DNA of 64,000 bases. Origin: Gammaproteobacteria bacterium. GTDB lineage: Bacteria > Pseudomonadota > Gammaproteobacteria > G965277405. Every line of letters begins with the position of its first letter. Within the stretch, counting starts at the first letter, position 1. Positions 14,161 through 33,283 of this stretch are shown one piece after another. The translations under genes and the position numbers were made by a program. The DNA lies in contig OZ255726.1 of assembly GCA_965277405.1 (NCBI GenBank), positions 640,001-704,000 on the forward strand. Reading direction: 5' to 3'. The notes beneath the pieces were generated by a model. The model searched no databases, was not told the origin of the DNA, and saw only the letters and a program-made list of their open reading frames with translations.

Positions 14161-14243
14161 ATATGTTGCAGTATGTGTGCTAACGTGTCGCGTTGGCGAT
14201 TGAATGCGCGATTTATTCATCAATTCACGGGTGATTGCAGCAT

Positions 14244-15389
14244 ATGAGTCAAATTGCAAAAGTATTTGTTGGCGCTGATATCCACGATGGCACTGAACTC
14301 TACAACGATTCAGCTCTGCTGTGTTTTACCAACAATAGCGCTGAGATTGTTAAAGTTGCCAGCCTTGCTGCCAACATCCCAATACATATGCTGGCAGGCG
14401 GTATTATAATGCCAGGTTTTGTTGACCTGCAAGTAAACGGTGGTGGTGGGGTAATGTTTAACGAGCACCCATCTGTGGCAACATTGCGCTGCATGGCTAA
14501 TGCGCATGCCAACTGCGGCACTATGGCGCTGCTACCGACGTTGATTACTGACAGCCGTGCACGAACTATTGCGGCAATAAATGCTGTTGCGCAGGCGATA
14601 GCGGAGAAAGTGCCCACCATTATTGGCCTGCATCTTGAAGGTCCACATCTATCATCGGTGCGTAAGGGAGCGCATACGGAGGAATTGATTCGACCGATGT
14701 TAGCAGCAGATATGCAGGTGTTGCTAGATGCAGCCGCTCGGCTAGCAAATGTTATGCTGACTGTTGCGCCAGAGTCGACAACCAATACGCAAATTACCAC
14801 ACTTGCTGATGCTGGCGTCATTGTGTCTCTTGGACATACCGATGCAAGTTACGATTGTTGTATGGCCGCATTTGATGCGGGTGCAACGTGTGTGACGCAT
14901 TTGTTTAATGCGATGAGCCAGCTTGGCAACCGCCAGCCAGGTTTGGTTGGCGCTGCGCTGGCACATGGTGAGGTGTATGCGGGCATCATTGCTGATGGAA
15001 TCCATGTGCACCCAGCAACGATGCGGGTAGCGTTTGCTGCAAAACCTGATGGTGGGCGTATATTCTTAGTGACTGATGCAATGGCAACGGCGGGGTCTGC
15101 AATAAATACATTCATGTTGAATAACCGTGAAGTTGTGCGCCGAGACGGGCGCCTTGAACTGCTAGACGGCACATTGGCAGGAGCTGACATCAATATGGTG
15201 AGAGGAATATCGGTGTTGGTCAATCAAGTTGGGCTGTCTGTTAACCGCGCCATTAACAGCGCAACATCGTTACCTGCACAGCTGCTTTGCCACGACTTTG
15301 GATTTGGTAGATTTACTCAGTGTGCAGATGGGCTTATCTATCTTGACGAGGGAATGACCAAGGCGACGAGATTGGATGAGATGATATAG
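14244..15389 (+). CDS. nagA: N-acetylglucosamine-6-phosphate deacetylase
   Basis: PGFVDLQVNGGGG, GLHLEGP, SLGHT, THLFNAM, IADGIHV, LVTDAM and GTLAG motifs. Confidence 0.93.
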   Translation: MSQIAKVFVGADIHDGTELYNDSALLCFTNNSAEIVKVASLAANIPIHMLAGGIIMPGFVDLQVNGGGGVMFNEHPSVATLRCMANAHANCGTMALLPTLITDSRARTIAAINAVAQAIAEKVPTIIGLHLEGPHLSSVRKGAHTEELIRPMLAADMQVLLDAAARLANVMLTVAPESTTNTQITTLADAGVIVSLGHTDASYDCCMAAFDAGATCVTHLFNAMSQLGNRQPGLVGAALAHGEVYAGIIADGIHVHPATMRVAFAAKPDGGRIFLVTDAMATAGSAINTFMLNNREVVRRDGRLELLDGTLAGADINMVRGISVLVNQVGLSVNRAINSATSLPAQLLCHDFGFGRFTQCADGLIYLDEGMTKATRLDEMI

Positions 15390-15494: not shown

Positions 15495-15565
15495 AAATAT
15501 ATTTGACGACAGCAAATATATTTGCTAGCATTAACAAAGCATGCGTTGAACATGAAAATATTCAT
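15495..15565 (+). promoter_or_regulatory. Candidate sigma70 promoter with overlapping palindromic operators for the inositol cluster
   Basis: TTGACG(15503)-N17-TAGCAT(15526); palindromes AAATATATTT (15495-15504), AGCAAATATATTTGCT (15511-15526) and near-palindrome ATGAAAATATTCAT (15552-15565). Confidence 0.55.
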
Positions 15566-15581: not shown

Positions 15582-17042
15582 ATGCAAAAACCAGAATTTG
15601 ATCCTTACAACAATAGAGGCTTGTTTTATAACGGAACGTGGCAGCCTGCCAACGGATCTGGTAATTTGCCAGTGTACAACCCTTGTAATGAAGAAATTGT
15701 AGGGCGAATACAACCAGCGAATGCAGACGATACCCGCAAGGCAATATCATCCGCAGCGAATGCGTTAGCAAAATGGCGCGCAGTAGTACCTTGGGAGCGC
15801 GCAATGTTGTTGCACAAGGTTGCCGCAGTCATGAGACAGCACACACAAGACGCAGCGTATTTTCTTGCAACAGAGCTTGGTAAGCCAGTTGCTCAAGGTG
15901 AGCGTGAATGGGGCATGGCTATCGACCAATTTGAGTGGTACGGAGATGAAGCGCGAAGATTACATGGCGATATAATTGCCAGCCGTTTACCAGATGCGCA
16001 TTATGAAGTAACAATTGAGCCAGTTGGTGTTGTCGCGGCATTTACTGCATGGAATTTTCCGCCTTTATTAGCAAGTCGTAAAATTGCCCCGGCACTTGCC
16101 GCAGGGTGTTCGATTGTATTAAGACCTTCTGTTGAGGCTCCTGCTGCGGTATTGCTGTTAGTAGATTGCTGTCGTCATGCTGGCATTCCTGCTGGTGTGG
16201 TGAATGTTGTGGTCGGCCCTATTGATGCTACATATCAGCCATTAGTTGCCGACAAACGCGTTAAGAAAATTAGCTTAACTGGTTCAACAGCCGTTGGTAA
16301 GCAAATGATTCGTGATTGCGCTGATACTGTAAAAAAAATGAGTATGGAGCTTGGCGGTAATGCGCCAACCATCATATTTGACGACGTTGATATTCCGTCT
16401 GTTGTCGCCCAAGCTGTGGCCTCGAAGCATGCCAATGCGGGCCAAGTGTGCGCAGCTCCAGATCGGTTTTTTGTGCACGCGGCAATTTACAAAAAATTTG
16501 TTGCTGAATATGTCAAACAGGTTAAAAAAATTGTCGTGGGGGATAGCTTTGACGCAGCGACGAATATGGGTCCATTGGTGAATCAAAAGCGTGTTATTGC
16601 TGTTGATAAGGTCGTTCGTGACAGCATTGAAAAAGGTGCACAGCTACTTATTGGCGGCAAGCAACTTGATACAAAAGGTTTTTTTTATGCCCCGACGGTG
16701 CTGGCAGATGTTACGGATGACATGCTGTGTAGCTGTGAAGAAAACTTTGGTCCAATTACAGCATTTACTAGCTTTGATAATGAAGAGGAAGTTGTGCAGA
16801 GGGCGAATGCTGCGGAGCTTGGTTTAGCTGCATATGTCTTTAGCAAGCATCATAATAGACTGCGGAGGGTGGTGAGCCAGATACAAACGGGAATGGTCGC
16901 GGCAAATACATTCGCATTGGCCAGCGCGCAGATGCCATTTGGCGGAATAAAGCAAAGCGGCTATGGCCGCGAAGGCGGGTCAAATTCTATGCGTGATTAT
17001 TGTAATATTAAAGTAGCTCATTTTTTTACAGGTGGTGAGTAA
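15582..17042 (+). CDS. NAD(P)-dependent aldehyde dehydrogenase, succinate-semialdehyde dehydrogenase-like
   Basis: AWNFP, LTGSTAVG, SMELGGNAP, NAGQVC, EENFGP and PFGGIKQSGYGREG motifs (GabD-type, not IolA/MmsA-type). Confidence 0.88.
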   Translation: MQKPEFDPYNNRGLFYNGTWQPANGSGNLPVYNPCNEEIVGRIQPANADDTRKAISSAANALAKWRAVVPWERAMLLHKVAAVMRQHTQDAAYFLATELGKPVAQGEREWGMAIDQFEWYGDEARRLHGDIIASRLPDAHYEVTIEPVGVVAAFTAWNFPPLLASRKIAPALAAGCSIVLRPSVEAPAAVLLLVDCCRHAGIPAGVVNVVVGPIDATYQPLVADKRVKKISLTGSTAVGKQMIRDCADTVKKMSMELGGNAPTIIFDDVDIPSVVAQAVASKHANAGQVCAAPDRFFVHAAIYKKFVAEYVKQVKKIVVGDSFDAATNMGPLVNQKRVIAVDKVVRDSIEKGAQLLIGGKQLDTKGFFYAPTVLADVTDDMLCSCEENFGPITAFTSFDNEEEVVQRANAAELGLAAYVFSKHHNRLRRVVSQIQTGMVAANTFALASAQMPFGGIKQSGYGREGGSNSMRDYCNIKVAHFFTGGE

Positions 17043-17788
17043 TGAGTAATATTTGGCAGAAAGACAAAGTACTACTGAATGGTTGGCTATCAATAGCTAA
17101 TAGTTTTAGTGCCGAAATTATGGCTAAGCAAGGTTGGGATTGCGTTTGTATTGATGCCCAACATGGCATGCTGGATTTTTCTGATGCTTTTGGTATGTTG
17201 CAGGCAATCAAGACTACTGATGCAATTCCGTTGGTGCGGATACCGTGGTTGCGACCAGAACAGATATCAAAATATTTAGATGCTGGTTGTATGGGGCTGA
17301 TTTGCCCGATGATTAACAGCGTCGATGACGTTAAGAATTTTGTGAAGTGGAGCAGCTACCCAAAACAGGGTGAGCGCAGTTTTGGTCCTTCACGCGTGAT
17401 TTTTGAGAATCCTAATTATTTTCATGAGGCAAATGAGGCAATTACTCGTTTAGCGATGATAGAAACACAGCAGGCGGTGGAAAACCTCGAACAAATTTGT
17501 TGTGTGGAAGGTTTGGATGGACTGTATATTGGGCCTGCTGACTTGTCTTGTGCGTTTGGGTATGCGCCAGCTTTAGATAGGGAGGAAGATGAAATGATTG
17601 GCTTGATTAAAACAATCATTGCTACTGCTCATAAACAAGACAAAAAAGTTGGTATACACACGGCTTCTGCAGCATATGCAAAAAAGGCTATCGCATGGGG
17701 TGTTGACATGGTCACCATTTCAAACGATGTGCGACTGCTGGCATCTGCGGCACAAGATATTCTCAGTGAAATGAGGATAAGTAGTTAG
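17042..17788 (+). CDS. HpcH/HpaI-family class II pyruvate aldolase
   Basis: CIDAQHG, LVRIP, LDAGCMGLICPMI, MIET and YIGPADLS motifs. Confidence 0.88.
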   Translation: MSNIWQKDKVLLNGWLSIANSFSAEIMAKQGWDCVCIDAQHGMLDFSDAFGMLQAIKTTDAIPLVRIPWLRPEQISKYLDAGCMGLICPMINSVDDVKNFVKWSSYPKQGERSFGPSRVIFENPNYFHEANEAITRLAMIETQQAVENLEQICCVEGLDGLYIGPADLSCAFGYAPALDREEDEMIGLIKTIIATAHKQDKKVGIHTASAAYAKKAIAWGVDMVTISNDVRLLASAAQDILSEMRISS

Positions 17789-17861
17789 GGGGGATTCTAG
17801 ATAACACAATGATTGTTGAGTTCTTTAGAGTTCCTTATTTTATTATTATGAAGGAGAGAAA

Positions 17862-18797
17862 ATGAAAAAAATCTTACTGGTTATATTAACTATCTGTATG
17901 GCAGCACCGCTGCTGGCAGCCGATAGATATACATTTATATCGCATGCTCCAGACTCTGATTCTTGGTGGAACACTATTAAGAATTCATTGAAGGATGCTG
18001 AAAAAGCATTTACTGTGACTGTCGATTATCGTAATCCAGCTAATGGTGATTTAGCTGAAATGAGCCGCTTAATTGAGCAAGCAGTTGCGAGAAACAGTGA
18101 TGGTATTATCACTACTATTGCCGACTATGATGTATTGAAAGGACCAATCCAAAAAGCTGTGAATAAAGGAATTCCAGTAATCACGGTGAACTCAGGTACA
18201 CCTGAGCAAAGCAAATCCTTAGGTGCCATCATGCATATTGGTCAGCCAGAATATGCGGCCGGCTTTGGTGCTGGTGATAAAGCAAAAAGAGATGCTGGGG
18301 TGAAAACATTCCTGTGTGTCAACCACTATGCTACCAATCCAGTCTCGTGGGAACGTTGCCGTGGTTTTGCCAATGCCATTGGAATATCAGATGATGACTT
18401 TAGAAAATACGCTGTAGATAGTGGTACTGACCCAAGCACTATTACCGGTCGTGTTTCTGCGTATCTGCGCAAAAATCCAAAAACCGATGCGGTGTTGGCG
18501 CTTGGTCCTACTTCTGCGCATCCTCTGATCAGGTTATTGAAGAAAATGGGCTTGAGTGATAAAACATATTTTGCTACTTTTGATTTAAGTGGTGAAATTG
18601 CAGCTGCGATAAAGAGTGGTGAGATTGCATTTGGTATTGATCAACAACCATACATTCAAGGCTTTTTTGCTGTTGCTGTAATGAAAAAATTCAACCAGTA
18701 CGGCGTGTTACCAGGCAATAACATTAACTCAGGACCTGGGTTTGTTACCAAAGATAATATTGCTTTAGTTGAGAAATATGCAGGCGAGTATAGATAA
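17862..18797 (+). CDS. Sugar (probably inositol) ABC transporter substrate-binding protein
   Basis: Signal peptide; HAPDSDSWW, GIPVITVNSG and FGIDQQPY motifs; iol context. Confidence 0.88.
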   Translation: MKKILLVILTICMAAPLLAADRYTFISHAPDSDSWWNTIKNSLKDAEKAFTVTVDYRNPANGDLAEMSRLIEQAVARNSDGIITTIADYDVLKGPIQKAVNKGIPVITVNSGTPEQSKSLGAIMHIGQPEYAAGFGAGDKAKRDAGVKTFLCVNHYATNPVSWERCRGFANAIGISDDDFRKYAVDSGTDPSTITGRVSAYLRKNPKTDAVLALGPTSAHPLIRLLKKMGLSDKTYFATFDLSGEIAAAIKSGEIAFGIDQQPYIQGFFAVAVMKKFNQYGVLPGNNINSGPGFVTKDNIALVEKYAGEYR

Positions 18798-18811
18798 CAG
18801 GAGTATCTGAT

Positions 18812-18838
18812 AAATGGGGCCCTTAGGGCCCCATTTTT
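18812..18838 (+). terminator. Stem-loop/intrinsic terminator between the binding-protein and permease genes
   Basis: AAATGGGGCCC-TTA-GGGCCCCATTT followed by T run. Confidence 0.7.
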
Positions 18839-18979
18839 ATGGGGAATATCATCTCCATGGTGACGATTTGCATCGCTAGATGATTTCTCTGGCTAAATCC
18901 GTTGCGTTGCTAGGGTTCTTTTTATGGGTTTTGTGCAGGCAGCAATACTATTGGTTTACAACTTCAGGGGAGTGTATGT

Positions 18980-20071
18980 ATGGCTCATGATGAGCGAGTA
19001 AAGAAAATACCCATTATTAAAAGTTTATTACGCAGACCTGAATCGGCGTCAATTGTTGGTTTTATTTTTGTCACCTTCTTTTTTTTACTAACAGGCGATA
19101 TTGCCATGTTCAGTGTCGAAGGGATATTAAACTGGACCACCGTCGCTGCATACCTTGGCGTTCTTGCAGTAGGGGCATGTTTACTCATGATTGCTGGTGA
19201 ATTTGACCTATCTATTGGCTCAATGATTGGTTTTGCTGGCGTTGCTATTTCTATACCCACGGTGTATTGGGGGCTGCCTATCAGCGTAAGTTTGCTGTTG
19301 AGTCTACTGATATGCCTATTCTTTGGTTATTTGAATGGCTACCTAGTTGTACGCACGGGACTGCCATCTTTTATTATTACGCTGGCACTGTTATTTATAT
19401 TGCGCGGTTTAACGTTGGCGCTATCAATTTTATTTACCAACCAAACCATTGTCAGCGGTTTGGATGGCCCAGTGAGTGAGGATGCATTCGTATCATTTTT
19501 ATTCAAAGGGTATGCGTTTGAAGGTCTTTTTGCGTGGCTTGCTAGCGCAGGCGTGTTGGACACCTTCAAAGATGGCGTTACTCCGGTTGTTCAAGGTGTG
19601 CCAAAAGTCATTATTTGGTGTTTGATAATCACCGCAATTGGCACATTTGTATTGAACAAAACACGGCTTGGCAACTGGATTTTTGCATCTGGTGGCGATG
19701 CACATGCAGCGAGAAATGTTGGTGTCCCTGCTGATAATGTAAAAATTGTAATGTTTATGACAACTGCCTTTTGTGCTTGGTTATTTGCTGTGCTACAAGT
19801 GGTAGAAATAGGCTCTGCATCTGCAGATAGAGGGCTGCTCAAGGAGTTTGAAGCAATTATTGCAGTGGTGATCGGTGGAGCATTATTGACAGGAGGCTAC
19901 GGTTCAATAATTGGAGCATTTTTTGGTGCGATTATTTTTGGTATGGTGCAAATGGGCATCACATATACCGACATTACCTCTGACTGGTTCAGGGTATTCC
20001 TTGGCTTGGTGTTGTTAGCTGCTGTACTGTTTAATAATTATGTTAGACAGCAGGTTATGAAATCTCAGTAA
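18980..20071 (+). CDS. Sugar ABC transporter permease
   Basis: AGEFDLSIGS, GLPSFIITL, ASGGDAHAARNVGV and IAVVIGG motifs; multiple TM segments. Confidence 0.92.
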   Translation: MAHDERVKKIPIIKSLLRRPESASIVGFIFVTFFFLLTGDIAMFSVEGILNWTTVAAYLGVLAVGACLLMIAGEFDLSIGSMIGFAGVAISIPTVYWGLPISVSLLLSLLICLFFGYLNGYLVVRTGLPSFIITLALLFILRGLTLALSILFTNQTIVSGLDGPVSEDAFVSFLFKGYAFEGLFAWLASAGVLDTFKDGVTPVVQGVPKVIIWCLIITAIGTFVLNKTRLGNWIFASGGDAHAARNVGVPADNVKIVMFMTTAFCAWLFAVLQVVEIGSASADRGLLKEFEAIIAVVIGGALLTGGYGSIIGAFFGAIIFGMVQMGITYTDITSDWFRVFLGLVLLAAVLFNNYVRQQVMKSQ

Positions 20072-20079
20072 GGGGCAAT

Positions 20080-20874
20080 ATGAGCAATACAGTGTTAGCG
20101 TTACAAGGAGTCAGCAAGTTTTTTGGTACAGTTATTGCGCTTCAGGATGTTTCGTTTAGTTTGGAAAAAGCCGAAGTGCATTGTTTGCTTGGTGATAATG
20201 GCGCTGGTAAATCTACCCTAATCAAAATCTTGTCTGGCGTACACACACCGAGCACAGGTAAATACATATACGAAGGTAAGGAAATGCAGATGGATTCGCC
20301 ACGGAATGCGCTGAAGATGGGTGTGGCAACGGTGTATCAAGATTTAGCGCTAGTACCACTGATGAGTATTACGCGTAATTTCTTTATGGGACGTGAAATA
20401 TATTCATCTGTCGTCGGAATAAAAGTTTTAGATATGCCGACGATGAATGAAATCACCCATACGCAGCTTAAAAAAATAGGCATCGCCATTCGCTCGCCAG
20501 CACAGGCTGTTGGGACCATGAGCGGTGGCGAACGCCAATCATTAGCCATCGCTAGGGCGGTGTATTTTGGTGCAAAAGTATTGATTTTAGATGAACCAAC
20601 TGCCGCATTAGGTGTCGTGCAAACAGTCAATGTATTGAAGACTGTTCACCAAACAAAACTGGCTGGGGTATCTGTTATCTTTATAACTCATAATGTACGG
20701 CATGCAATGGCGGTTGGCGACCGTTTCACAGTGTTAAACAGAGGCAAAACGCTAGAGGTATGCAAGAGGAGCGGCACACACGTGACATTAGATTATTTAC
20801 AAAACTTGATGGCGGGTGACAAGGATTTGGAAGATATTACAGCAGAGCTTGGGGACACCGTCGCCAATGTATAA
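20080..20874 (+). CDS. Sugar ABC transporter ATP-binding protein
   Basis: Walker A GDNGAGKS, signature MSGGERQ, Walker B LILDEPT. Confidence 0.93.
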   Translation: MSNTVLALQGVSKFFGTVIALQDVSFSLEKAEVHCLLGDNGAGKSTLIKILSGVHTPSTGKYIYEGKEMQMDSPRNALKMGVATVYQDLALVPLMSITRNFFMGREIYSSVVGIKVLDMPTMNEITHTQLKKIGIAIRSPAQAVGTMSGGERQSLAIARAVYFGAKVLILDEPTAALGVVQTVNVLKTVHQTKLAGVSVIFITHNVRHAMAVGDRFTVLNRGKTLEVCKRSGTHVTLDYLQNLMAGDKDLEDITAELGDTVANV

Positions 20875-20904
20875 ATATTTCAGTAGTTAGGCTCCAAAAC
20901 TATA

Positions 20905-22740
20905 ATGCAAAAATTAACCGTAGCGCAGGGCTTAGTAAAGTATCTTTGTCACCAATATATAATTATTGATGGCAAAAAAAAACAACTTTTCCCTGGGATT
21001 TTTGGCATTTTTGGACATGGCAATGTCACCTGTTTAGCGAGTGCGCTGTATCAAGTTAAAGAAGTATTGCCAACATGGCGAGGGCAGAATGAACAGTCGA
21101 TGGCGCATGCGGCAATAGCGTATAGTAAGGCAGTCCTCAGACAGCAAATTATGGTTACTACCTCATCAGTTGGTCCTGGGGCATTGAACATGGTCACAGC
21201 CGCTGGAGTTGCGCATACCAATCACCTACCGCTGCTAATTTTGTCTGGTGACTATTTTGCCAATCGACGCCCAGATCCTGTGCTGCAACAAGTCGAGCAT
21301 CCACATGATCCAACATTGAGTGTGAATGATGCGTTTAAGCCTGTTACTCGCTATTGGGATCGGATAACCCATCCTGAACAAATTTTGCAAAGTCTGCCGC
21401 ATGCCGTGGCAACGCTGGTTGACCCTGGTAGCTGCGGCCCTGCTTTTATCGGTCTTTGTCAAGATATTCAAGGAGTTGCGTATGATTATCCTGAAGAGTT
21501 TTTTGCCGATTGCGTATGGCATATTCCGCGGCCAGAATCTGATAAACAAGAATTAAACAATGCGCTGGCGTTACTCAAATCAGCACAAAAACCTTTGATT
21601 ATTGCCGGCGGTGGGGTGCGCTATTCAAGAGCGAATGCAACGTTGTCGCAGTTTGCACAAAAATATCAAATACCTGTCGTAGAGACGGTCGCTGGTCGAG
21701 CAACATTAATTCATTCTGACCCATCTTTTGCAGGACCGATTGGGGTGACAGGGAGTGATAGTGCGAATTATATGAGCAAAAATGCTGATGTTATTTTGGT
21801 GCTTGGAACCAAGCTGCAAGACTTCACAACAGGCTCGTGGACTAACTTTTCACCTAGCGCCCAATTCATTGCAGTGAATACTCGGCGGTTTGATACAACC
21901 AAGCACCGAGCACTTGCTGTTGTAGCTGATGTTAAAGTAACACTCGAACAGTTTGACGCGCGTTTTACTGATTTTGCTGGATTCGATGCTGGCTGGTATG
22001 CAACGGCAAGAAGCCAATTACAACAATGGGATGGCGCAATCGATACGTATAACGCCCAAACAGGTACTTTAATGCACTATGGGCATATTATCGCCGCGGT
22101 AAATAAACAGTGCCAAGACAATAGCTATGTGCTTACCGCCGCGGGGGGCTTCCCTGGTGAATTGAATAAGATGTGGCGGACTAGCACACCAGATACTGTT
22201 GATTGTGAGTATGGGTTTTCTTGCATGGGGTATGAAATTGCAGGTGGTTGGGGCGCAAAAATGGCTTGTCCGCACAATGATGTGTATGTGCTCGTCGGTG
22301 ATGGCTCGTATATGATGATGAACAGTGATATATATTCATCAGTGCTCACTGGGCATAAACTCATCGTTATCGTTTGTGATAATTTTGGTTTCGCTGTTAT
22401 CAATCGGCTGCAAAACGCTACAGGCGGTGCGTCGTTTAATAATCAAATTGCAGATTGCAAAATAACCGAACCTTTTTCTGTTAATTTTGCGCAACATGCT
22501 GCGTCTATGGGCGCGTATAGCAAAAAAGTTGAGACGCAAGAGCAGTTTATAGCAGCGCTTAAATGGGCGAAAACTACAGATAAAACGACAGTTATTTGTG
22601 TCGAGATTGACCCTTTTACTTGGTCCAAAGGTGGGTGCTGGTGGGATGTTGGCATGCCAGAGGTGAGCGATAGCACCGCAATTCAACAAGCAAGTGTAGA
22701 GCATCAACACGGGAGATTGCAGCAAAGGCGCGGCATCTAA
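20905..22740 (+). CDS. iolD: 3D-(3,5/4)-trihydroxycyclohexane-1,2-dione acylhydrolase
   Basis: GIFGHGNV, GQNEQSMAHAA, RRPDPVLQQVE, EYGFSCMGYEIAG and TPP motif GDGSY. Confidence 0.95.
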   Translation: MQKLTVAQGLVKYLCHQYIIIDGKKKQLFPGIFGIFGHGNVTCLASALYQVKEVLPTWRGQNEQSMAHAAIAYSKAVLRQQIMVTTSSVGPGALNMVTAAGVAHTNHLPLLILSGDYFANRRPDPVLQQVEHPHDPTLSVNDAFKPVTRYWDRITHPEQILQSLPHAVATLVDPGSCGPAFIGLCQDIQGVAYDYPEEFFADCVWHIPRPESDKQELNNALALLKSAQKPLIIAGGGVRYSRANATLSQFAQKYQIPVVETVAGRATLIHSDPSFAGPIGVTGSDSANYMSKNADVILVLGTKLQDFTTGSWTNFSPSAQFIAVNTRRFDTTKHRALAVVADVKVTLEQFDARFTDFAGFDAGWYATARSQLQQWDGAIDTYNAQTGTLMHYGHIIAAVNKQCQDNSYVLTAAGGFPGELNKMWRTSTPDTVDCEYGFSCMGYEIAGGWGAKMACPHNDVYVLVGDGSYMMMNSDIYSSVLTGHKLIVIVCDNFGFAVINRLQNATGGASFNNQIADCKITEPFSVNFAQHAASMGAYSKKVETQEQFIAALKWAKTTDKTTVICVEIDPFTWSKGGCWWDVGMPEVSDSTAIQQASVEHQHGRLQQRRGI

Positions 22741-22768
22741 GGCTATTTTTTACCAACTAATTTTTTCA

Positions 22769-23665
22769 ATGCAACAATTAAACACAAAAATTGGTGTGTC
22801 AGCTATTGCCTGGCTGAACGACGATACACCAGAACTAACAAACCATGTCACCCTTGAGCAGGCGCTTGCTGATATGGAAAAAATCGGGTTTAAAGGAACA
22901 GAAAATGGCACTGCATTTCCAAAAGATGCTGCTGCTTTATCGAGTGTGCTGTGTCGCTATAACCTAGAGCTGGTTTCAGGCTGGTACACCGGCAAATTAG
23001 CAGAGAGAAGTTATCAAGACGAATTGCAGGCAATCAAAGCGCAGCTTAAGTTGTTCAAAGAGCTTGGTGCAGCGGTTATCGTCTATGGTGAAACCAGCAG
23101 AGCCATGAATCTAAGACAGCCATTGCTGCAAAAGCCAACCATTGCTAAAGATGAGTTTCCTGCATACGCGAGGAAAGTAGACGACCTTGCCAAGTATTGT
23201 AATGACTTTGGTGTGCCATTGGCGTTGCATCAACATATGGGGACCTGTATTCAACATATGGATGAATTACACCGATTGATGGATCTGACCACAGAGTTAC
23301 ATATCACTTTTGATACAGGGCATTGTCTGCTGGCAGGTGGTGATCCATTAGAAATATGTCAAATGTATGCGCAGCGCATCAATCACTTACATTTGAAAGA
23401 TGTCCGTAAGCCAATGCTTGATGCTCTTGATGTCGCGCAAGATTCATTTACTGATGTGCTCAGCAAAGGAGTGTTTACAGTTCCAGGGGATGGTTGCATC
23501 GACTATGACCCTATTATTGATACGTTACGACAGCATGGCTACCAAGGCTGGTTTGTTATTGAGGCTGAACAAGACCCGCGCAAGGCTGACCCATATGCAT
23601 TTTCAAAACAAGGCTATGAATATACGCAGCAGCTTGCCTTAAGACATAATTACCAACTCAATTAA
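22769..23665 (+). CDS. iolE: Myo-inosose-2 dehydratase
   Basis: IAWLNDD, HQHMGT, FDTGH, HLKDVR, FTVPGDG and WFVIEAEQDP motifs. Confidence 0.9.
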   Translation: MQQLNTKIGVSAIAWLNDDTPELTNHVTLEQALADMEKIGFKGTENGTAFPKDAAALSSVLCRYNLELVSGWYTGKLAERSYQDELQAIKAQLKLFKELGAAVIVYGETSRAMNLRQPLLQKPTIAKDEFPAYARKVDDLAKYCNDFGVPLALHQHMGTCIQHMDELHRLMDLTTELHITFDTGHCLLAGGDPLEICQMYAQRINHLHLKDVRKPMLDALDVAQDSFTDVLSKGVFTVPGDGCIDYDPIIDTLRQHGYQGWFVIEAEQDPRKADPYAFSKQGYEYTQQLALRHNYQLN

Positions 23666-23676
23666 GCTAACGCAGC

Positions 23677-24705
23677 ATGAAAAAAATTAAACTAGCGATC
23701 AGTGGCTTAGGTCGATTGGGAGCAATGCAGGCTGAAAATTTAGCGTATAGAATACCAGGCTGCAAACTAATTGCGGCGTGTGATCCTGATACAGCAAAAT
23801 TACAATGGGCAAAGGAGCATTTAGGCGTTGATCACACCTATACAAATTTTACAACACTTTGCAAGCAAGAGGATATAGACGGTATTTTCATTGTATCGCC
23901 GACGGCATTGCATGGTGAGCATATTATTGGGGCATTACAGTCTGGTAAGCATGTTTTTTGTGAAAAACCGTTAGCAATGACCATTAGGGAATGTGTTCAG
24001 ATTGAGCAAGAACGCGAAAAATTTAAAAAATGCATCGCTATGATTGGCTTTTCACGCCGCTATGACGCTGCATATATGCGCGCCAAGGCAAAAGTTGATG
24101 CGGGACAAATAGGCAGACCGTTCTTTATTCGCAGTACTTCAAGCGACATGCACGCAACCGCAGCGTTTCAAATTGAGTTTTCCAAAAAAAGCGGAGGTAT
24201 TTTTGTCGATATGGCAATCCACGATGTAGACATGGTGCATTGGATGAGTGGTCAGCAACTCAAGCGGGTATTTGGTGTAGGCGGCGCATATTGCAACCCT
24301 AGTTTTGCAGAATTTAACGATGCCGATAATGCAGCAGTTTTAGGGGAGCAACAAGACGGAACGATGGCGATGATACAAGTCACCAGAGATTCATTTTATG
24401 GCGACTCAACTGATTTAACGATTCAGGGGACAAAAGGAGCATTGCATGTCAACAATCATTCTCGACGCGACCAGCTCGATGAATATATTGACGGGGCAAT
24501 GAAAATTGAATGCACCGATGGTTTTTCACAACGATTTAGGCAGGCATTTATTACGGAAGCTGAATGTTTTGTAGACCACATTCGCTCAAATACCCAACCA
24601 CAGAACACGCTTACAGAGGCAACGTATGCTACAAAAGCAGCGATTGCCTGCCGTCAGGCATTACAAACGAAATCAATTATCGAACTGGACGAAGTAACAG
24701 ATTGA
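23677..24705 (+). CDS. Gfo/Idh/MocA-family oxidoreductase (inositol dehydrogenase-like)
   Basis: GLGRLG, HVFCEKP, GFSRRYD and SGGIFVDMAIHD motifs. Confidence 0.85.
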   Translation: MKKIKLAISGLGRLGAMQAENLAYRIPGCKLIAACDPDTAKLQWAKEHLGVDHTYTNFTTLCKQEDIDGIFIVSPTALHGEHIIGALQSGKHVFCEKPLAMTIRECVQIEQEREKFKKCIAMIGFSRRYDAAYMRAKAKVDAGQIGRPFFIRSTSSDMHATAAFQIEFSKKSGGIFVDMAIHDVDMVHWMSGQQLKRVFGVGGAYCNPSFAEFNDADNAAVLGEQQDGTMAMIQVTRDSFYGDSTDLTIQGTKGALHVNNHSRRDQLDEYIDGAMKIECTDGFSQRFRQAFITEAECFVDHIRSNTQPQNTLTEATYATKAAIACRQALQTKSIIELDEVTD

Positions 24706-24728
24706 TACGCTAACGAGGCAATTGACAC

Positions 24729-25724
24729 ATGATAAACGTAGCCGTTTTTGGCACAGGTAGAATTGGCAAAATTCATATTAATAATATAGCACAACATGCT
24801 GATGTGCGGCTGGTTGGGATTTGTGACCCATACGCTATAGATATCCACGTGATTGCGGATCGCTATCAAACCAAGGTGATGTTAGCAGTAGATATTTTTG
24901 CAGATACCTCAATCGAGATAGTGGTTATTGCCAGCAGCACCAGTACCCACTTTGAGCTGATACAACAATCCTTGTTACACGGCAAACATATTTTTTGTGA
25001 AAAACCAATAGATCTGGCGATTGATAAGGTTCGCAGCATTCAAGCATTAGCGGAGCAAAGCCAAAGTAAATTTGGCTTTGGGTTGAATAGGCGTCACGAT
25101 ACCAACTTTACCCATTTAAAGCAGGCAATCGATGCTGGTGAAATTGGGCAATTAGAAAGTTTGAGCATTATTTCGCGCGATCCTGCGCCACCACCTTTGG
25201 AATATATTAAAAATTCTGGTGGGCTAATTAGAGATATGATGATTCATGATCTAGATATGGCAAACTTTTTGCTAGGTAGCGACACCATTGTCGACGTGTA
25301 TGCCAGAGGCTCAAACTTTGTTGACCCTGCGATTGGCGCAGCAGGAGACATTGACGGCGCTAGCGTTCACTTTACCACCAACAACGGAGTGCTAGGCAAC
25401 ATCATTAATTCCAGAAGGTGCGCATATGGCTATGATCAAAGAATCGAAGCGTTTGGCGCCAAAGGACATTTGCTCGTCCACAATGTACCGCAGAACTTTG
25501 TCGAGAAGGCCACCGCAGATGCTGTGCAACACCCACTACCCCAGTTGTTTTTTTTGCAACGCTATGCAGCAGCATACCAAATTGAATTAGACGCATTTTT
25601 CAACTGGATACAAGGAGGCAAACCGTTTCGAGCCAATCTTATGGATGCTGTGTATGCCTCAGAGTTAGCAGAAATAATCATGACATCACTTGCAAGAAAA
25701 GAAAAAATGCAGGTTGATTTATGA
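24729..25724 (+). CDS. iolG: Inositol 2-dehydrogenase
   Basis: GTGRIG, FCEKP, SRDPAPPP, SGGLIRDMMIHD, YGYDQRIE and FFLQRY motifs. Confidence 0.88.
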   Translation: MINVAVFGTGRIGKIHINNIAQHADVRLVGICDPYAIDIHVIADRYQTKVMLAVDIFADTSIEIVVIASSTSTHFELIQQSLLHGKHIFCEKPIDLAIDKVRSIQALAEQSQSKFGFGLNRRHDTNFTHLKQAIDAGEIGQLESLSIISRDPAPPPLEYIKNSGGLIRDMMIHDLDMANFLLGSDTIVDVYARGSNFVDPAIGAAGDIDGASVHFTTNNGVLGNIINSRRCAYGYDQRIEAFGAKGHLLVHNVPQNFVEKATADAVQHPLPQLFFLQRYAAAYQIELDAFFNWIQGGKPFRANLMDAVYASELAEIIMTSLARKEKMQVDL

Positions 25725-26854
25725 TCAAATACAAGGTTGAGAAACCCTTACACATTGGGGTGATTGGTGCTGGATATATGGGGAAAAGCCATGCCCATGC
25801 GTATAGAAATCTTGCTGGTCATCCGTTACACCCGCGATTATACGCGGTTGCTACAAGCAATATTGCCTCGGCAAAACACGCGGCAGAAGCATATAATTTC
25901 CCGCGCTACACCGATTGTTGGCGGTTACTGTGTGAAGATGAGCAAGTAGATGTCGTCTGTGTTACTAGCCCGAATCAATTTCATCTTGAGCAGGCACAAT
26001 ACGCCCTTGAATGCGGTAAAAAATTATCGCTTGAAAAACCGTTGGTTATTAGCATCGCCGAGCTGGCAGTACTCAATACCACAGCAAAAGCGGCGAACAC
26101 TACGATTAACATTGGGTATAATTATTTGCATAACCCAATGCTGTATTACGCTAAGCAACTCATCCAAACGGGAAAAATAGGAGCATTAGTCAGTTTCCGT
26201 GTTATTCACAGTGAGGATTTTTTAGCCCAGCAAGCGAGTACTTTTAAATCATGGCATATTGACAAAAGCGTCGGCGGTGGTGTTGTCAGAGACATCGGCT
26301 CACACCCATTGTCAATGGTAAATTACTTGATTGGTGATGTTCAGCGTGTTTGCGCAATTGGTAAACGCCAGTTTGCGACAAGAGGTCCTAAGCACACCCC
26401 AGTAACCGTGGAAGACCATATTGATGTGCTTATCGCCATGGATGATAACCTGCAAGGTACGCTAACGGCATCGTGGATAGGTTCTGGTCGGGGGATGAAT
26501 CTGGGCTTCGAAATCTACGGCAGCCAAGGTGCATTATGTTTTAACCAAGAACGCCTCAACGAATTGCAACTGTATGTGGTCGATCAACATAATTTAGCCG
26601 ATAAAGGCGCACTGACATTACGCGCTGGTCAGCATCACCCCGAATTCGATGTGGTTTGTCCAGGCAATGAGCACGGGATAGGGTTCATGGATTTAAAAAT
26701 ATTAGAGGCTAAAAATTATTTAGACAGCATTTTGCAGAACAAACAGCCGATTACCAGTTTGGCAATGGGGTTGAAAGTAGAGCAACAAATTGCAGCTATA
26801 TATCAATCAATTGCGGCAAAAAATTGGATTGACGTGTGTTACGAAATTGCGTAA
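25721..26854 (+). CDS. Gfo/Idh/MocA-family oxidoreductase
   Basis: IGAGYMGKSH, LEKP, GYNY, DIGSH and FNQERLNEL motifs. Confidence 0.85.
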   Translation: MIKYKVEKPLHIGVIGAGYMGKSHAHAYRNLAGHPLHPRLYAVATSNIASAKHAAEAYNFPRYTDCWRLLCEDEQVDVVCVTSPNQFHLEQAQYALECGKKLSLEKPLVISIAELAVLNTTAKAANTTINIGYNYLHNPMLYYAKQLIQTGKIGALVSFRVIHSEDFLAQQASTFKSWHIDKSVGGGVVRDIGSHPLSMVNYLIGDVQRVCAIGKRQFATRGPKHTPVTVEDHIDVLIAMDDNLQGTLTASWIGSGRGMNLGFEIYGSQGALCFNQERLNELQLYVVDQHNLADKGALTLRAGQHHPEFDVVCPGNEHGIGFMDLKILEAKNYLDSILQNKQPITSLAMGLKVEQQIAAIYQSIAAKNWIDVCYEIA

Positions 26855-26869
26855 TAGCAGAGTATCACC

Positions 26870-27709
26870 ATGGAACTTGATAAAGTTAACACAACAATTG
26901 CTGAGATATATTCGAGCCTGAGTCCTGTTAATAAAAAAATTGCAAATTATTTCTTAACCAATCCAGACGAGATTGTTTTTTATAACATCGTCAGTTTGAG
27001 TCAGATTTTACAAATTAGTCCTTCAAGCATTTTCAAGTTTGCCAAACTATTAGGGTTAACCGGCTTTAAGGAATTACAGAATATCTACAGAATGCATCTG
27101 GTTCAAACTTCTGTAGAAGGTGGTTTTTCTGAAAAGCACAGCGCGCTCAAGCAGAGCGTAGCATTGACCACAAAATACGACCTACAGCGAGTTATTGATG
27201 ATATTGTAAAACAAGATTTACTGGCGCTTGAGCAAATGAGAAAGCATATAGACGTTGCTGATGTCGAACGTGCCATCAGTAAAATGCTTGCTGCAGATAC
27301 TATTTATATTGCAGGACAACTGCGTTCCGAATCGATTGCCAACTGGTTGTGCTATACCTTAACAATGCTTGGGAAAAAAAATCGCCTACTCAATGCCAGC
27401 GCAGCTGCTATGCATGGAGCACAAGGAAAATTCATTGGTTGCAATGATGTCCTGATGAGTATTTCGTTCCAGTTTTATTCAGAATTGGTTATTCAAACAA
27501 CCAACACTGCTAGGCAAAACAAATGCAATATTATTGCCATTACAGATGGAGATGCCTCGCCCTTGCAGCCGTTGGCTGACGTGTGTTTTTCATTGCCCTA
27601 TAAAGAGTATTTGTTTTCTAAATCACTGACAGCGGCAATGAGTTTAGCTCTCATTCTGACAACTGGCTTGGCGCAAAAATTTAAAAGTTATGAAAAAACG
27701 AATATCTAA
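26870..27709 (+). CDS. RpiR/MurR-family transcriptional regulator (IolR-like)
   Basis: N-terminal HTH (SPSSIFKFAKLLGLTGFKELQ) plus SIS domain (IAITDG..SPL). Confidence 0.88.
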   Translation: MELDKVNTTIAEIYSSLSPVNKKIANYFLTNPDEIVFYNIVSLSQILQISPSSIFKFAKLLGLTGFKELQNIYRMHLVQTSVEGGFSEKHSALKQSVALTTKYDLQRVIDDIVKQDLLALEQMRKHIDVADVERAISKMLAADTIYIAGQLRSESIANWLCYTLTMLGKKNRLLNASAAAMHGAQGKFIGCNDVLMSISFQFYSELVIQTTNTARQNKCNIIAITDGDASPLQPLADVCFSLPYKEYLFSKSLTAAMSLALILTTGLAQKFKSYEKTNI

Positions 27710-29417
27710 GGAACAGCTGCGCAGTTTTCGCTGGTATGGCAAAGATGATCTGCGCTCGTTTGGACACAGATCACGCAGCAAGCAAATGGGGCTGTGGGAT
27801 GAAGAATATATAGGAAAACCAATCATTGGGATAATCAACCCGTGGAATGAACTCAATACCTGCCATACGCATTTCCCCGATCGAGTTATAGATATTAAAA
27901 GGGGGGTGACTGCCAGTGGAGGGTTCCCCGTTGAAATTCCTGTCATGTCTTTAGGCGAGCAATTGATGAAACCAACGGCGATGTTGTTCCGTAATTTTTT
28001 GGCAATGGAAGTTGAAGAGATTATCCGCGCGTATCCCATCGATGGTGTCGTGCTGCTTGGTGGTTGCGACAAGACAACGCCTGGCGTAATAATGGGTGGC
28101 ATCAGCGTTGGCTTACCGATGCTATATGTGCCTGGAGGAGCAATGCGCAAGGCTGCTTGGCGTGGCGAAGTATTGGGCAGTGGCAGTGATGTTTGGAAGT
28201 ATTGGGAAGAAAAAAGAATTGGCACATTGCCTGCTGCAGATTGGGAAGATTTAGAAAATAGTATTGCCGCGACTCCAGGTACCTGCATGTCTATGGGCAC
28301 CGCCGCGACCATGATGAGCGTTGCCGACGCCCTGGGATTGTGCATTACTGGCGCGTCTTCGATTCCTGCCGTCGATGCCAACCATAGGCGCATGGGGTCA
28401 CAGTCTGGGCGTCTCATTGTGGAAATGGTTTGGCAGGATGTACGACCAACTGATATTATTAGTCGGCAAAGCGTTGAAAATGCTGTCAAAGTCTGCTGCG
28501 CTATTGGCGGCTCTACTAACGCCATCATCCATATTGTTGCAATCGCCAAGCGCGCGAAAATACCATTTTCTCTTGAAGAGTTTGATACGCTTGCAAAAGA
28601 TGTGCCATTACTCGCCAATATTAAGCCAACAGGTAAATATGTAATGGAGGATTTTTATTTTGCAGGTGGGTTAAAGGCGCTGATGTGGCAACTAAGAAGG
28701 CACTTAAATTTGCAGCTACCAACAGTTAATTTTCGCACGCTCCATCAAAACGTGGCTGAGAGTAAAGTGTGGAATGAAACAGTCATTACCAGTGTCGATA
28801 ACCCGCTCTCTCCTGGAGGCTCATTAGTCATCTTGAAAGGCAATATCGCACCAAATGGCTGCGTACTAAAACCGCATGCCATGGAAAAGCGGTTTTTGAA
28901 GCATACTGGCAAAGCGCTAGTGTATGACCACATTAAAACCATGAAAATAGCAATGGAAGATATGGCGCTTGATGTCAGCAAAGATGATGTATTGGTGCTG
29001 CGTAATGCAGGTTCAGTTGGTGCAATGGGGATGCCAGAATGGGGGCAGTTACCGTTACCAAAAAAACTCGTGAAACAAGGTGTTCGCGATATGCTGCGTA
29101 TTTCTGATGCACGGATGAGCGGCACAAGTTATGGCGCGTGTATTTTGCACGTCAGCCCAGAAGCTGCGCTGCATGGGCCGCTGGCGCTGATCCAAAATGG
29201 CGATGAAATTTGTTTAGATGTGGAAAAACGTAGCCTCCACGTTTTAGTCGATGAGGTAACGTTAGCTGCGAGAAGAAAAAAACTACCGCCAATAACAAGC
29301 TATGACTCTGGCTACGCTGCATTATTCAGCAAACACATCCAACAAGCAGATCAAGGCTGTGACTTCGATTTTCTTGCGCATGGCGATAGAACAAGTGATG
29401 AACCGTTTATTGACTAG
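27690..29417 (+). CDS. IlvD/EDD-family sugar-acid dehydratase (L-arabinonate dehydratase-like)
   Basis: LNTCH, GGCDKTTPG, PGTCMSMGTA, GGSTNA, GMPEWG and SDARMSGT motifs. Confidence 0.9.
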   Translation: MKKRISKEQLRSFRWYGKDDLRSFGHRSRSKQMGLWDEEYIGKPIIGIINPWNELNTCHTHFPDRVIDIKRGVTASGGFPVEIPVMSLGEQLMKPTAMLFRNFLAMEVEEIIRAYPIDGVVLLGGCDKTTPGVIMGGISVGLPMLYVPGGAMRKAAWRGEVLGSGSDVWKYWEEKRIGTLPAADWEDLENSIAATPGTCMSMGTAATMMSVADALGLCITGASSIPAVDANHRRMGSQSGRLIVEMVWQDVRPTDIISRQSVENAVKVCCAIGGSTNAIIHIVAIAKRAKIPFSLEEFDTLAKDVPLLANIKPTGKYVMEDFYFAGGLKALMWQLRRHLNLQLPTVNFRTLHQNVAESKVWNETVITSVDNPLSPGGSLVILKGNIAPNGCVLKPHAMEKRFLKHTGKALVYDHIKTMKIAMEDMALDVSKDDVLVLRNAGSVGAMGMPEWGQLPLPKKLVKQGVRDMLRISDARMSGTSYGACILHVSPEAALHGPLALIQNGDEICLDVEKRSLHVLVDEVTLAARRKKLPPITSYDSGYAALFSKHIQQADQGCDFDFLAHGDRTSDEPFID

Positions 29418-29454
29418 CTAAAATCGATACAACAAGAAATTAATGAGCACTTTT

Positions 29455-29502
29455 ACAATACAATACAATTACAAAACAACACAAAACCACACAATACAAC
29501 AA
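29455..29502 (+). repeat. Degenerate CAAHA pentamer tandem repeat (about 9 units)
   Basis: ACAATACAATACAATTACAAAACAACACAAAACCACACAATACAACAA. Confidence 0.5.
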
Positions 29503-29611
29503 GCCGTGTTAAGCAAGACAGGCATCCTGCAAGACGGTAGAATGCACGCAGACTTTAATAGCCACAATCAACCTGTATACCTGTACAGTAGATAATGAAT
29601 TCGGAGGAAAT

Positions 29612-30592: not shown

Positions 30593-30656
30593 GGCGACAT
30601 GTATATCTGGTTGAAATTTGCATTGACAGCAGCTGTGGATCAGGTGTGGAGCAGGT

Positions 30657-31088
30657 ATGACTGACCGCATTTTTGGAGTCATTATTATAGTGGTTTCATT
30701 GCTGTTTGCCTGGGGTGCGTCACTGACGCATGAAAGCTTTATTCAAGACCCTGTTGGACCAAAACTATTTCCATACATTTTGGCAGGGCTCGGAACATTG
30801 TTTGGCGCATTTATCGTCTTGCGACCAGATGAAAACCCACGTTGGCCAAACCGTGCTGGTGGCTTTGAGATTGGCGCAGCAGTATTGGCAATGTGTATGT
30901 ATACTGCATCGCTGGAGATGATAGGGTTTGTCATAGCCACGATACTTACCGCAATGTATTTTGCATGGCGGTTTGGTGCAACTGCAAAGGGCGCATTGCT
31001 ATCAGGGCTGCTGATTTCATTTGGCTTGTACGCAGTGTTTCACTTATTGCTAGGACTATCGTTGGCTAAAGGTCCATTTGGGTTTTAA
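30657..31088 (+). CDS. tctB: Tripartite tricarboxylate transporter small membrane subunit
   Basis: DPVGPKLFP motif, 4 TM segments, lies between tctC and tctA. Confidence 0.88.
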   Translation: MTDRIFGVIIIVVSLLFAWGASLTHESFIQDPVGPKLFPYILAGLGTLFGAFIVLRPDENPRWPNRAGGFEIGAAVLAMCMYTASLEMIGFVIATILTAMYFAWRFGATAKGALLSGLLISFGLYAVFHLLLGLSLAKGPFGF

Positions 31089-31102
31089 ACAAGGTTAGGA
31101 TT

Positions 31103-33207: not shown

Positions 33208-33283
33208 GCCCAAGTAGCTCAGTCGGTAGAGCAGAAGACTGAAAATCTTTGTGTCGGTGGTTCGATTCCGCCCTTGGGCACCA
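33208..33283 (+). tRNA. tRNA-Phe(GAA)
   Basis: Cloverleaf, anticodon loop CTGAAAA, encoded CCA; upstream TTGACA-N16-TACATT. Confidence 0.96.

Follow-up and report, generated by a model that had tools for sequence, protein, structure and literature searches.

In Bacillus subtilis and many Proteobacteria, myo-inositol is degraded by a canonical pathway in which IolG, IolE and IolD convert inositol to 5-deoxy-D-glucuronate, after which IolB, IolC and IolJ or a DUF2090 aldolase lead to dihydroxyacetone phosphate (DHAP) and malonate semialdehyde. Here we describe an inositol gene cluster at positions 15582-32605 of a 64,000-nt stretch of DNA from a gammaproteobacterium (GenBank assembly GCA_965277405.1, contig OZ255726.1, positions 640,001 to 704,000), referred to below as the window. 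The cluster has the IolG/IolE/IolD upper half in common with the canonical pathway, and malonate semialdehyde is again its predicted C3 product, with an MmsA encoded in the genome. IolB, IolC and the DUF2090 aldolase, however, were not detected in the host, and the lower half of the cluster would instead oxidize, dehydrate and cleave without ATP, giving pyruvate where the canonical pathway gives DHAP. From the gene content we propose, with a probability of roughly 0.55, an ATP-independent oxidative inositol route that leads from 5-deoxyglucuronate through 5-deoxyglucarate and 4-hydroxy-2-oxoadipate to pyruvate and malonate semialdehyde.

What is proposed is a set of known enzyme families and a known non-phosphorylative logic applied to a new substrate, and it is widespread. 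In the GarL branch of D-glucarate and galactarate catabolism, a dehydratase is followed by an HpcH-family 2-dehydro-3-deoxyglucarate aldolase that yields pyruvate and tartronate semialdehyde. Both this branch and the proposed route pass from an aldaric acid through a 2-oxo-3-deoxy acid to cleavage by an HpcH-family enzyme, but the substrate proposed here lacks the C5 hydroxyl and would give malonate, not tartronate, semialdehyde. The window aldolase scores 145-146 bits against the GarL models, far under their cut-offs (393-407), and the GudD and GarD dehydratases belong to the enolase superfamily, whereas the cluster dehydratase is of the IlvD/EDD type. The Dahms and Weimberg pentose routes use an aldose dehydrogenase, an IlvD/EDD aldonate dehydratase, a 2-keto-3-deoxy acid aldolase and an aldehyde dehydrogenase (ALDH). 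The cluster draws on the same enzyme families, is likewise kinase-free and has a dehydratase closest to L-arabinonate dehydratases; in contrast to these routes, its feed would be the deoxy-uronate of cyclitol ring cleavage rather than a pentose, and its genes are interleaved with iolGED. A further likeness is to the oxidative 4-deoxy-L-erythro-5-hexoseulose uronate (DEHU) pathway of alginate users which, in the accessible part of its description, takes a uronate-type aldehyde acid to a 2-keto-3-deoxy-aldarate without reduction or phosphorylation and forms an oxidative bypass parallel to a kinase route (PMC8563752). It differs, in the same part of that source, in its substrate and in continuing through an RraA-like dehydratase/decarboxylase and an alpha-ketoglutarate semialdehyde dehydrogenase (KGSADH), with no HpcH aldolase (PMC8563752).

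The host genome (G000) is a single contig (C1) of 2,174,577 bases with a completeness of 98.26%. Searched genome-wide with hidden Markov models, it gave no match for IolB (TIGR04378 and PF04962) or for the DUF2090 aldolase (PF09863), and the top score for IolC (TIGR04382) was 64.7 bits against a cut-off of 300; all three were detected in control genomes. A tblastn search of the genome with the IolB and IolC-DUF2090 proteins of a metagenomic inositol cluster (L102, below) also returned nothing at E<=1e-5. The one class II fructose-bisphosphate aldolase gene (C1:580391-581359) presumably encodes the housekeeping enzyme. An earlier note on this DNA, which had counted iolB, iolC, iolJ and iolA/mmsA as absent from the cluster and suggested this genome-wide search, is borne out for IolB and IolC but needs correction for mmsA, which is missing only from the cluster: a gene elsewhere in the genome (C1:1861144-1862586, - strand) matches TIGR01722 at 641.4 bits (cut-off 448.5). 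The presence of mmsA at another site is in keeping with malonate semialdehyde remaining the end point of the route.

The cluster consists of 16 tightly packed genes, all on the + strand, that extend from the ALDH gene through tctA. The ALDH and HpcH genes share 1 nt, iolG and the gene for a third GFO/IDH/MocA (GFO) dehydrogenase overlap by 4 nt, and the rpiR and IlvD/EDD genes overlap by 20 nt. Gene calls and family assignments agree with the co-directional, packed cluster described from sequence before, comprising an ATP-binding cassette (ABC) transporter, iolD, iolE, iolG, two further GFO genes, an RpiR regulator, an ALDH, an HpcH aldolase and an IlvD/EDD dehydratase. IolD, the ring-opening thiamine pyrophosphate-dependent hydrolase (20905-22740, +; TIGR04377 823.9 bits, cut-off 715), IolE, the inosose dehydratase (22769-23665, +; TIGR04379 346.7 bits, cut-off 290), and IolG (24729-25724, +; TIGR04380 358.3 bits, cut-off 355) all pass their NCBIfam equivalog cut-offs, and the genome has one IolD and one IolE, both inside the cluster. 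The two remaining GFO proteins are an IolG-like one (23677-24705, +; TIGR04380 285.4 bits, under the cut-off of 355) and the third one (25721-26854, +; TIGR04380 111.3 bits), which also matches a levoglucosan dehydrogenase model weakly (217.8 of 650).

Given the missing iolB and iolC, one could regard the inositol genes as a non-functional remnant of a canonical cluster, flanked by unrelated enzymes. Gene loss is plausible in a small genome (2.17 Mb), and a tRNA gene is found on either side of the cluster. None of the 16 tightly packed reading frames is disrupted, however, IolD and IolE exceed equivalog cut-offs and the gene combination recurs in a metagenomic locus (L104) and, partly, at more than 25 other loci described below, all of which makes decay a very improbable explanation.

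According to the family assignments, the ABC transporter would import a cyclitol, IolG would form the inosose, with the GFO paralogues serving other isomers, IolE would dehydrate the inosose and IolD would open the ring to give 5-deoxy-D-glucuronate. When numbered from the carboxyl carbon, 5-deoxy-D-glucuronate is a 2-deoxy acid, while an IlvD/EDD enzyme needs a 2,3-dihydroxy acid and a class II pyruvate aldolase needs a 4-hydroxy-2-oxo acid. Because the dehydratase and the aldolase cannot act on a 2-deoxy acid, oxidation at C1 must come first; by mechanistic reasoning, the resulting 5-deoxy-D-glucarate would offer a D-configured 2,3-diol. In the proposed route, the ALDH, or a spare GFO protein acting on the lactol, would oxidize C1 to give 5-deoxy-D-glucarate, and the IlvD/EDD enzyme would remove water across C2-C3 to give 4-hydroxy-2-oxoadipate (2-keto-3,5-dideoxyhexarate). 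The HpcH enzyme would then cleave this product to pyruvate and malonate semialdehyde, which MmsA, encoded outside the cluster, would convert to acetyl-CoA and CO2.

The first gene of the cluster (15582-17042, +) encodes an NAD(P)-dependent ALDH (PF00171, 510 bits) that resembles succinate-semialdehyde dehydrogenase (SSADH) but is under the cut-off of both SSADH models (TIGR01780, the best, 485.6 of 646.35; NF008415, 435.2 of 828); its nearest solved structure is that of E. coli GabD (3jz4, 403 bits). We propose that it acts as a 5-deoxyglucuronate dehydrogenase, with malonate-semialdehyde dehydrogenase as the alternative role. The second gene (17042-17788, +), the sole representative of the HpcH family detected in the genome, encodes a class II metal-dependent 2-oxoacid aldolase of the HpcH/HpaI family (PF03328, 96.8 bits, cut-off 25), the proposed 4-hydroxy-2-oxoadipate aldolase that would release pyruvate and malonate semialdehyde. 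It is under the equivalog cut-offs for HpaI (167.9/368.8), GarL (146/393 and 144.9/406.75) and RhmA (125.8/441). Its nearest solved structure is SwHKA of Sphingomonas wittichii (6r62, 176.8 bits over residues 4-245), compared with HpaI (134 bits) and the 2-dehydro-3-deoxygalactarate aldolase structure 1dxe (117 bits). As characterized in the accessible text of its source, SwHKA, a metal aldolase of class II, accepts pyruvate, hydroxypyruvate and further analogues of pyruvate (PMC10099721). That text assigns SwHKA no physiological role and names Phe210 as its hydroxypyruvate contact; this residue (chain position 211 in the alignment, one off the published numbering) appears aligned with His206 of the window enzyme, which is nearly invariant in the HpcH alignment.

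The sugar-acid dehydratase of the IlvD/EDD family (27690-29417, +) matches both domains of that family (ILVD_EDD_N, PF00920, 325 bits; ILV_EDD_C, PF24877, 198 bits), passes the subfamily model PRK06131 (792 bits, cut-off 539) and falls just under the cut-off for L-arabinonate dehydratase (NF009559, 864.8 bits, cut-off 882). No other sugar-acid IlvD/EDD gene was found in the genome, in which the housekeeping IlvD has 30% identity to this protein. Residues C58, C126, D127, K128 and C199 are invariant in its alignment, and we take the conserved cysteines and the Asp-Lys motif to be the Fe-S cluster and Mg residues. The nearest structures are 8ej0 (543 bits) and the L-arabinonate dehydratase 5j84 (527 bits). 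In the proposed route this protein would be a 5-deoxyglucarate dehydratase forming 4-hydroxy-2-oxoadipate.

The relatives of this dehydratase tie it to inositol genes. The closest in the database have 68-71% identity, followed by one from a Motiliproteus metagenome-assembled genome (MAG; 65%) and by SAR324 proteins (63%), which carry the name L-arabinonate dehydratase. In a metagenome scan that covered 80 loci, five of the seven most similar loci lie in iol clusters, and a GFO gene flanks every iol-linked relative. Locus L098 has the order IolE-GFO-IlvD-GFO-ALDH (46% identity) before the contig ends; L099 and L100, both on marine metagenome contigs, have the order IolD-IolE-GFO-IlvD; and L102 carries IolD, RpiR, a 2-hydroxyacid dehydrogenase, HpcH, MmsA, IolB, IolC-DUF2090, IlvD, GFO, IolG and an ABC transporter. 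The gene order at L104 is SBP-permease-ATPase-IolD-IolE-GFO-IlvD-IolG-ALDH (40%)-HpcH (47%), in which SBP denotes the substrate-binding protein and MmsA is upstream; this locus is an independent repeat of the full gene set of the window, and no 2-hydroxyacid dehydrogenase is found within the 16 kb of it that are available. The remaining two of the seven are uninformative, with the L101 gene at a contig edge and L103 only 2 kb long, and the other 73 loci (54-58% identity) show no iol genes. A tree built from 88 dehydratases unites all six iol-linked rows and seven of unknown context in one clade (Shimodaira-Hasegawa-like approximate likelihood ratio test (SH-aLRT) support of 91), a 14-row set has SH-aLRT support of 99, and the 75 dehydratases that lack iol context are outside the clade of the window enzyme. 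About 35 alignment columns separate the iol-linked clade, several of them near the Cys58 and Glu90 motifs; these clade-specific columns do not clearly gain positive charge, as might be expected for an enzyme acting on a dicarboxylate. We also noted PhyH-family (Fe/2-oxoglutarate dioxygenase) genes in L099 (1142-2302) and L100 (9004-9819) that adjoin the canonical iol genes and the GFO-IlvD pair.

The aldolase has a similar association. Using a profile of HpcH relatives, we collected the best 80 loci from other species genomes. IolD and/or IolE lie within 10 kb of HpcH in 25 of these loci, in taxa that include Rhizobium, Labrys, Acuticoccus, Amaricoccus, Aestuariivirga, Pantoea, Amphritea and a single-cell genome of the Pelagibacteraceae. 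An ALDH orthologue (41-52% identity) is directly upstream of HpcH at 20 of the 80 loci, 17 of them among the 25 that are iol-linked. Since unrelated genomes repeat these gene combinations, the arrangement of the cluster goes beyond chance. For the other loci, the gene directly 3' of HpcH was expected to encode a dehydratase of another family, an expectation we dropped because the gene encodes a D-isomer-specific 2-hydroxyacid dehydrogenase. This dehydrogenase is present at 21/25 iol-linked loci and at 5/55 others; a short-chain dehydrogenase/reductase (SDR) gene is present at 17/25 iol-linked loci, and extra GFO genes are common. The window genome has no orthologue of the 2-hydroxyacid dehydrogenase or the SDR (best 25-33% identity, with 25% for the dehydrogenase), and three carriers of the dehydrogenase arrangement without IolB (G003, G004, G011) have no orthologue of the window dehydratase. 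The distribution of the two enzymes is almost complementary.

These patterns are consistent with a model in which the route occurs in two versions. In the commoner one, the 2-hydroxyacid dehydrogenase would oxidize the D-2-hydroxyl to give 3,4-dihydroxy-2-oxoadipate, and the aldolase would cleave this to hydroxypyruvate and malonate semialdehyde. That the nearest structure to the window aldolase, SwHKA, converts both pyruvate and hydroxypyruvate fits this two-version model, as does the lack of a window-type dehydratase in G003, G004 and G011. We put slightly less than even odds on the general form of the model, a widespread second kinase-free lower branch of inositol catabolism in which the 2-oxo group would be made by a dehydratase or a D-2-hydroxyacid dehydrogenase interchangeably, before cleavage by an HKA-type aldolase. 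The corresponding distribution, with the dehydratase here and in marine metagenomes and the dehydrogenase in rhizobia, Pantoea, Klebsiella plasmids and Pelagibacteraceae, is put forward just as tentatively. The suggestion in the earlier note that the extra enzymes fill the missing steps holds in that the ALDH-HpcH pair recurs with IolD/IolE and the dehydratase clade is iol-linked, but at 21 of 25 loci a dehydrogenase takes the place of the dehydratase.

Clusters that contain their own mmsA bear on the ALDH. MmsA genes (TIGR01722, over the cut-off) lie within L024, L025 and L104, each of which also has an SSADH-like ALDH. L024 and L025 are in genomes without detected IolB or IolC, and L104, which covers 16 kb of a metagenome contig 32.8 kb long, shows neither within that piece. 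MmsA in clusters free of IolB and IolC and equipped with the SSADH-like ALDH fits the model: the pairing suggests that the ALDH substrate is probably something other than malonate semialdehyde, while MmsA inside such clusters suggests that malonate semialdehyde probably continues to be formed.

The dehydrogenase version of the module is also found on a plasmid. Locus L202, at 93535-112269 of a conjugative IncFIB/IncHI1B plasmid of Klebsiella pneumoniae (NZ_CP092401.1), carries genes for an SDR, iolE, iolD, RpiR, ALDH, the aldolase, the hydroxyacid dehydrogenase, iolG, GFO and an ABC transporter, under generic annotations such as "succinate-semialdehyde dehydrogenase", "aldolase/citrate lyase family protein" and "hydroxyacid dehydrogenase". 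HpcH relatives are present on 41 plasmid records, mainly rhizobial.

For most carriers the module is not the only inositol route. A tree of 45 IolD proteins places all 25 HpcH-linked copies, including that of the window, in one clade (SH-aLRT 100) and sets 13 canonical copies apart (SH-aLRT 98). For the pairs of copies compared, the one with iolC and iolB scores 860-960 bits and the copy beside ALDH-HpcH ~790-850 bits. The module is usually a parallel branch beside the canonical pathway and not a replacement, and neither IolB nor IolC was matched in five of the 25 carriers (G003, G004, G011, G012 and G017). To the survey proposed before, for iolDE clusters that lack iolBC and contain dehydratase, HpcH and ALDH genes, the answer is accordingly mixed: L104 has this composition, but most carriers keep IolB and IolC. 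For a broader view, 400 other genomes were drawn evenly from across the phylum, of which 65 were IolD-positive, including an unpublished one (G444; IolD, IolB, no HpcH match). An HpcH orthologue is within 8 kb of IolD in 6/65 of these (6/64 without G444), and IolB is missing in 1/65. IolD without IolB is rare generally and enriched among module carriers, related genomes not being independent. The single IolB-less genome of the sample (G234) was rejected as a further example of the module, as its HpcH (40%) neither adjoins IolD nor is paired with an ALDH. We also noted a third arrangement (family f86; G013:C141, G024:C4, G393:C9 and others) that combines an IolD of the module clade with an IolC that is short (297-330 bits) and not fused to DUF2090, and with a divergent IolB-like gene (137-160 bits, under the cut-off of 205); this arrangement may represent a separate variant of the kinase route.

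Several observations weigh against the proposed route. Among the carriers, IolB is over the cut-off in 17 of 25 genomes; counting the window host as well, IolC is over the cut-off in 19 of the 26 genomes searched, and a second IolD, of the canonical type, is present in 17 of 26. The carriers negative for IolB and IolC are drafts, MAGs or a single-cell genome, with completeness not given. The HpcH-linked IolD clade also contains three IolDs whose partners are a short IolC and a divergent IolB-like gene, so that it is not exclusive to the module. At L099 and L102 the dehydratase occurs together with both IolB and IolC, which counts against simple replacement, and neither an ALDH nor an HpcH is in the available stretches of L099 and L100. 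HpcH relatives with 44-51% identity occur without iol genes at 55/80 loci, and in the aldolase tree the window protein is on a long branch (1.02), only as sister (support 88) to the iol-rich clade. The dehydratase scores closest to L-arabinonate-type enzymes, while the C4 configuration of 5-deoxy-D-glucarate is that of D-xylonate and D-gluconate and not of the L-arabinonate type. Finally, an HpcH (49%) on an Agrobacterium plasmid adjoins an annotated L-arabinonate dehydratase, a GFO gene and an amidohydrolase gene in a Dahms-like setting that has no iol genes.

The last points would also be expected if the ALDH, HpcH, GFO and IlvD/EDD proteins, perhaps with the TctCBA transporter, made up an ordinary Dahms-type route with which truncated or accessory iolGED genes are merely co-located. 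All four enzyme types of such a route are present, the dehydratase is near the L-arabinonate dehydratase cut-off (864.8 vs 882), at two loci (L053 and L081) HpcH is accompanied by a dehydratase of 55-56% identity but by no iol genes, and TctCBA, 3' of the dehydratase gene, could import a sugar acid. Yet iol and transporter genes spanning 10 kb stand between the two halves of such a route, with the dehydratase gene overlapping rpiR, and at L104 and L098 the dehydratase gene sits between IolE-GFO and IolG or ALDH. The ALDH-HpcH pair accompanies IolD/IolE at 17 loci that have no dehydratase, and intact iolGED would stop at a dead-end aldehyde acid. The 75 dehydratases outside the window clade include those of L053 and L081, and scanning the cluster genes against Pfam revealed no lactonase family, although no lactonase-directed search was made. 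We consider an ordinary Dahms-type route improbable on these grounds.

The frequent coexistence of two pathways raises a different alternative, that the module does serve cyclitol catabolism but by another chemistry. The ring-opened form of a different inositol isomer or derivative, not accepted by IolB and IolC, could be what the module handles; the ALDH could oxidize malonate semialdehyde to malonate, with a GFO protein performing the C1 oxidation; or the aldolase substrate could be the dehydrogenase-made 3,4-dihydroxy-2-oxo acid, with the dehydratase on a side branch. A separate substrate is suggested by the canonical iolCDEB genes and second, module-linked IolD in most carriers, and the widespread module has a 2-hydroxyacid dehydrogenase, an SDR (17/25) and extra GFO genes instead of the dehydratase. 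In addition, a GFO gene is always beside iol-linked dehydratases, and SSADH-like ALDHs act on short omega-carboxy aldehydes. However, the window host has a single IolD, a single IolE, a single ABC transporter of this kind and no other lower pathway, such that inositol must pass through these enzymes, and the MmsA genes by the ALDH in L024, L025 and L104 argue against the malonate-semialdehyde role. Another chemistry is, in our view, less likely, and we favor the oxidative route through 5-deoxyglucarate.

The remaining genes of the cluster are concerned with transport and regulation. The ABC transporter consists of a sugar SBP (17862-18797, +; Peripla_BP_4), a permease (18980-20071, +; BPD_transp_2) and an ATPase (20080-20874, +; ABC_tran); the best model for the SBP is that of a rhizopine SBP (NF052284, 255.9 bits, under the cut-off of 420). 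Between the SBP and permease genes there is a hairpin (GGGGCCC-TTA-GGGCCCC) followed by a run of T (~18812-18840), which probably acts as a partial terminator, so that the SBP would be expressed more strongly than the membrane parts. The regulator (26870-27709, +) belongs to the RpiR/MurR family, with HTH_6 and SIS domains; RpiR-type regulators are present at 12 of the 25 iol-linked HpcH loci. A perfect 16-bp palindrome, AGCAAATATATTTGCT (15511-15526), lies within a promoter-like site (15503-15531), 55 bp before the ALDH start, and is the candidate operator of the cluster. No other copy was found in the 2.17 Mb genome, even with 1 mismatch, and the palindrome ties no further genes, such as mmsA or tctC, into a regulon.

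At the 3' end of the cluster are genes for a tripartite carboxylate transporter, TctC (29612-30592, +; PF03401), TctB (30657-31088, +; PF07331) and TctA (31103-32605, +; PF01970), the sole Tct system detected in the genome. Its membership of the pathway is uncertain, and TctCBA was not seen beside the iol-linked dehydratases L098-L104. On the 5' side, the block is bounded by tRNA-Ser(GGA) (13523-13612), then nagA (14235-15389), and on the 3' side by tRNA-Phe(GAA) (33208-33283). The nagA, iol and tct genes together form a block of ~19.6 kb between the two tRNA genes that is island-like in appearance; a search between the flanking tRNA genes revealed no direct repeats, and there was no GC shift. 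Outside the tRNA genes lie housekeeping genes, with hemC, spoT/relA and a D-Ala-D-Ala carboxypeptidase gene upstream and a T2SS-F protein gene, ogt, pyrG, kdsA, pyrD and glnD downstream. An ORF of 397 aa between ogt and pyrG (36795-37988, +) has no Pfam match at E<=1e-5. The window also contains a complete 16S rRNA gene (49773-51304, +; 1567 bits) but no 23S or 5S match; the ~2.4 kb 3' of it (51305-53680) holds short ORFs only, followed by tRNA-Met and tRNA-Asn on the opposite strand. The rRNA genes of the host appear to be unlinked. The host lineage is isolated in the species-genome collection: the nearest of 40 relatives examined belong at best to the same class, each to another family. IolD is present in just 2 of the 40, both of the canonical type, which leaves no synteny comparison within the lineage.

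The earlier note knew of no description of this route, and our literature search likewise turned up neither the route nor its intermediates in connection with inositol, subscription journals and supplements being outside its reach. Matches for 5-deoxyglucarate and 4-hydroxy-2-oxoadipate concern 4-carboxy-4-hydroxy-2-oxoadipate, and nothing was found in the literature searched on a growth phenotype of Acuticoccus kalidii, a carrier in whose genome neither IolB nor IolC was detected. In the accessible part of the GapMind account, the gaps in myo-inositol catabolism that are discussed concern the DUF2090 aldolase (PMC9007349). Genomes are scored for inositol use by whether they contain iolBCDE. 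A large iol survey, according to the part of it available, demanded at least three of iolBCDE (PMC9430895), a requirement under which clusters with iolDE only, such as this one, would count as negative.

If the proposed route is correct, predictions of which bacteria use inositol would change, including those for SAR11-related cells and other small-genome marine bacteria, as would the ATP and redox balance of the inositol pathway. In streamlined genomes without IolB and IolC, this would then be the sole inositol route. The route would add new enzymes, a 5-deoxyglucuronate dehydrogenase, a 5-deoxyglucarate dehydratase and a 4-hydroxy-2-oxoadipate aldolase, and would give a physiological role to the hydroxypyruvate-accepting HKA aldolases used in biocatalysis. 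It would also fill annotation gaps where ALDH, aldolase and dehydrogenase genes beside iolD carry generic names, as on the Klebsiella plasmid; the gene families concerned recur next to IolD/IolE in rhizobia, Pantoea and other genomes. The module is not rare, with HpcH near IolD in six of the 65 IolD-positive genomes of the phylum sample.

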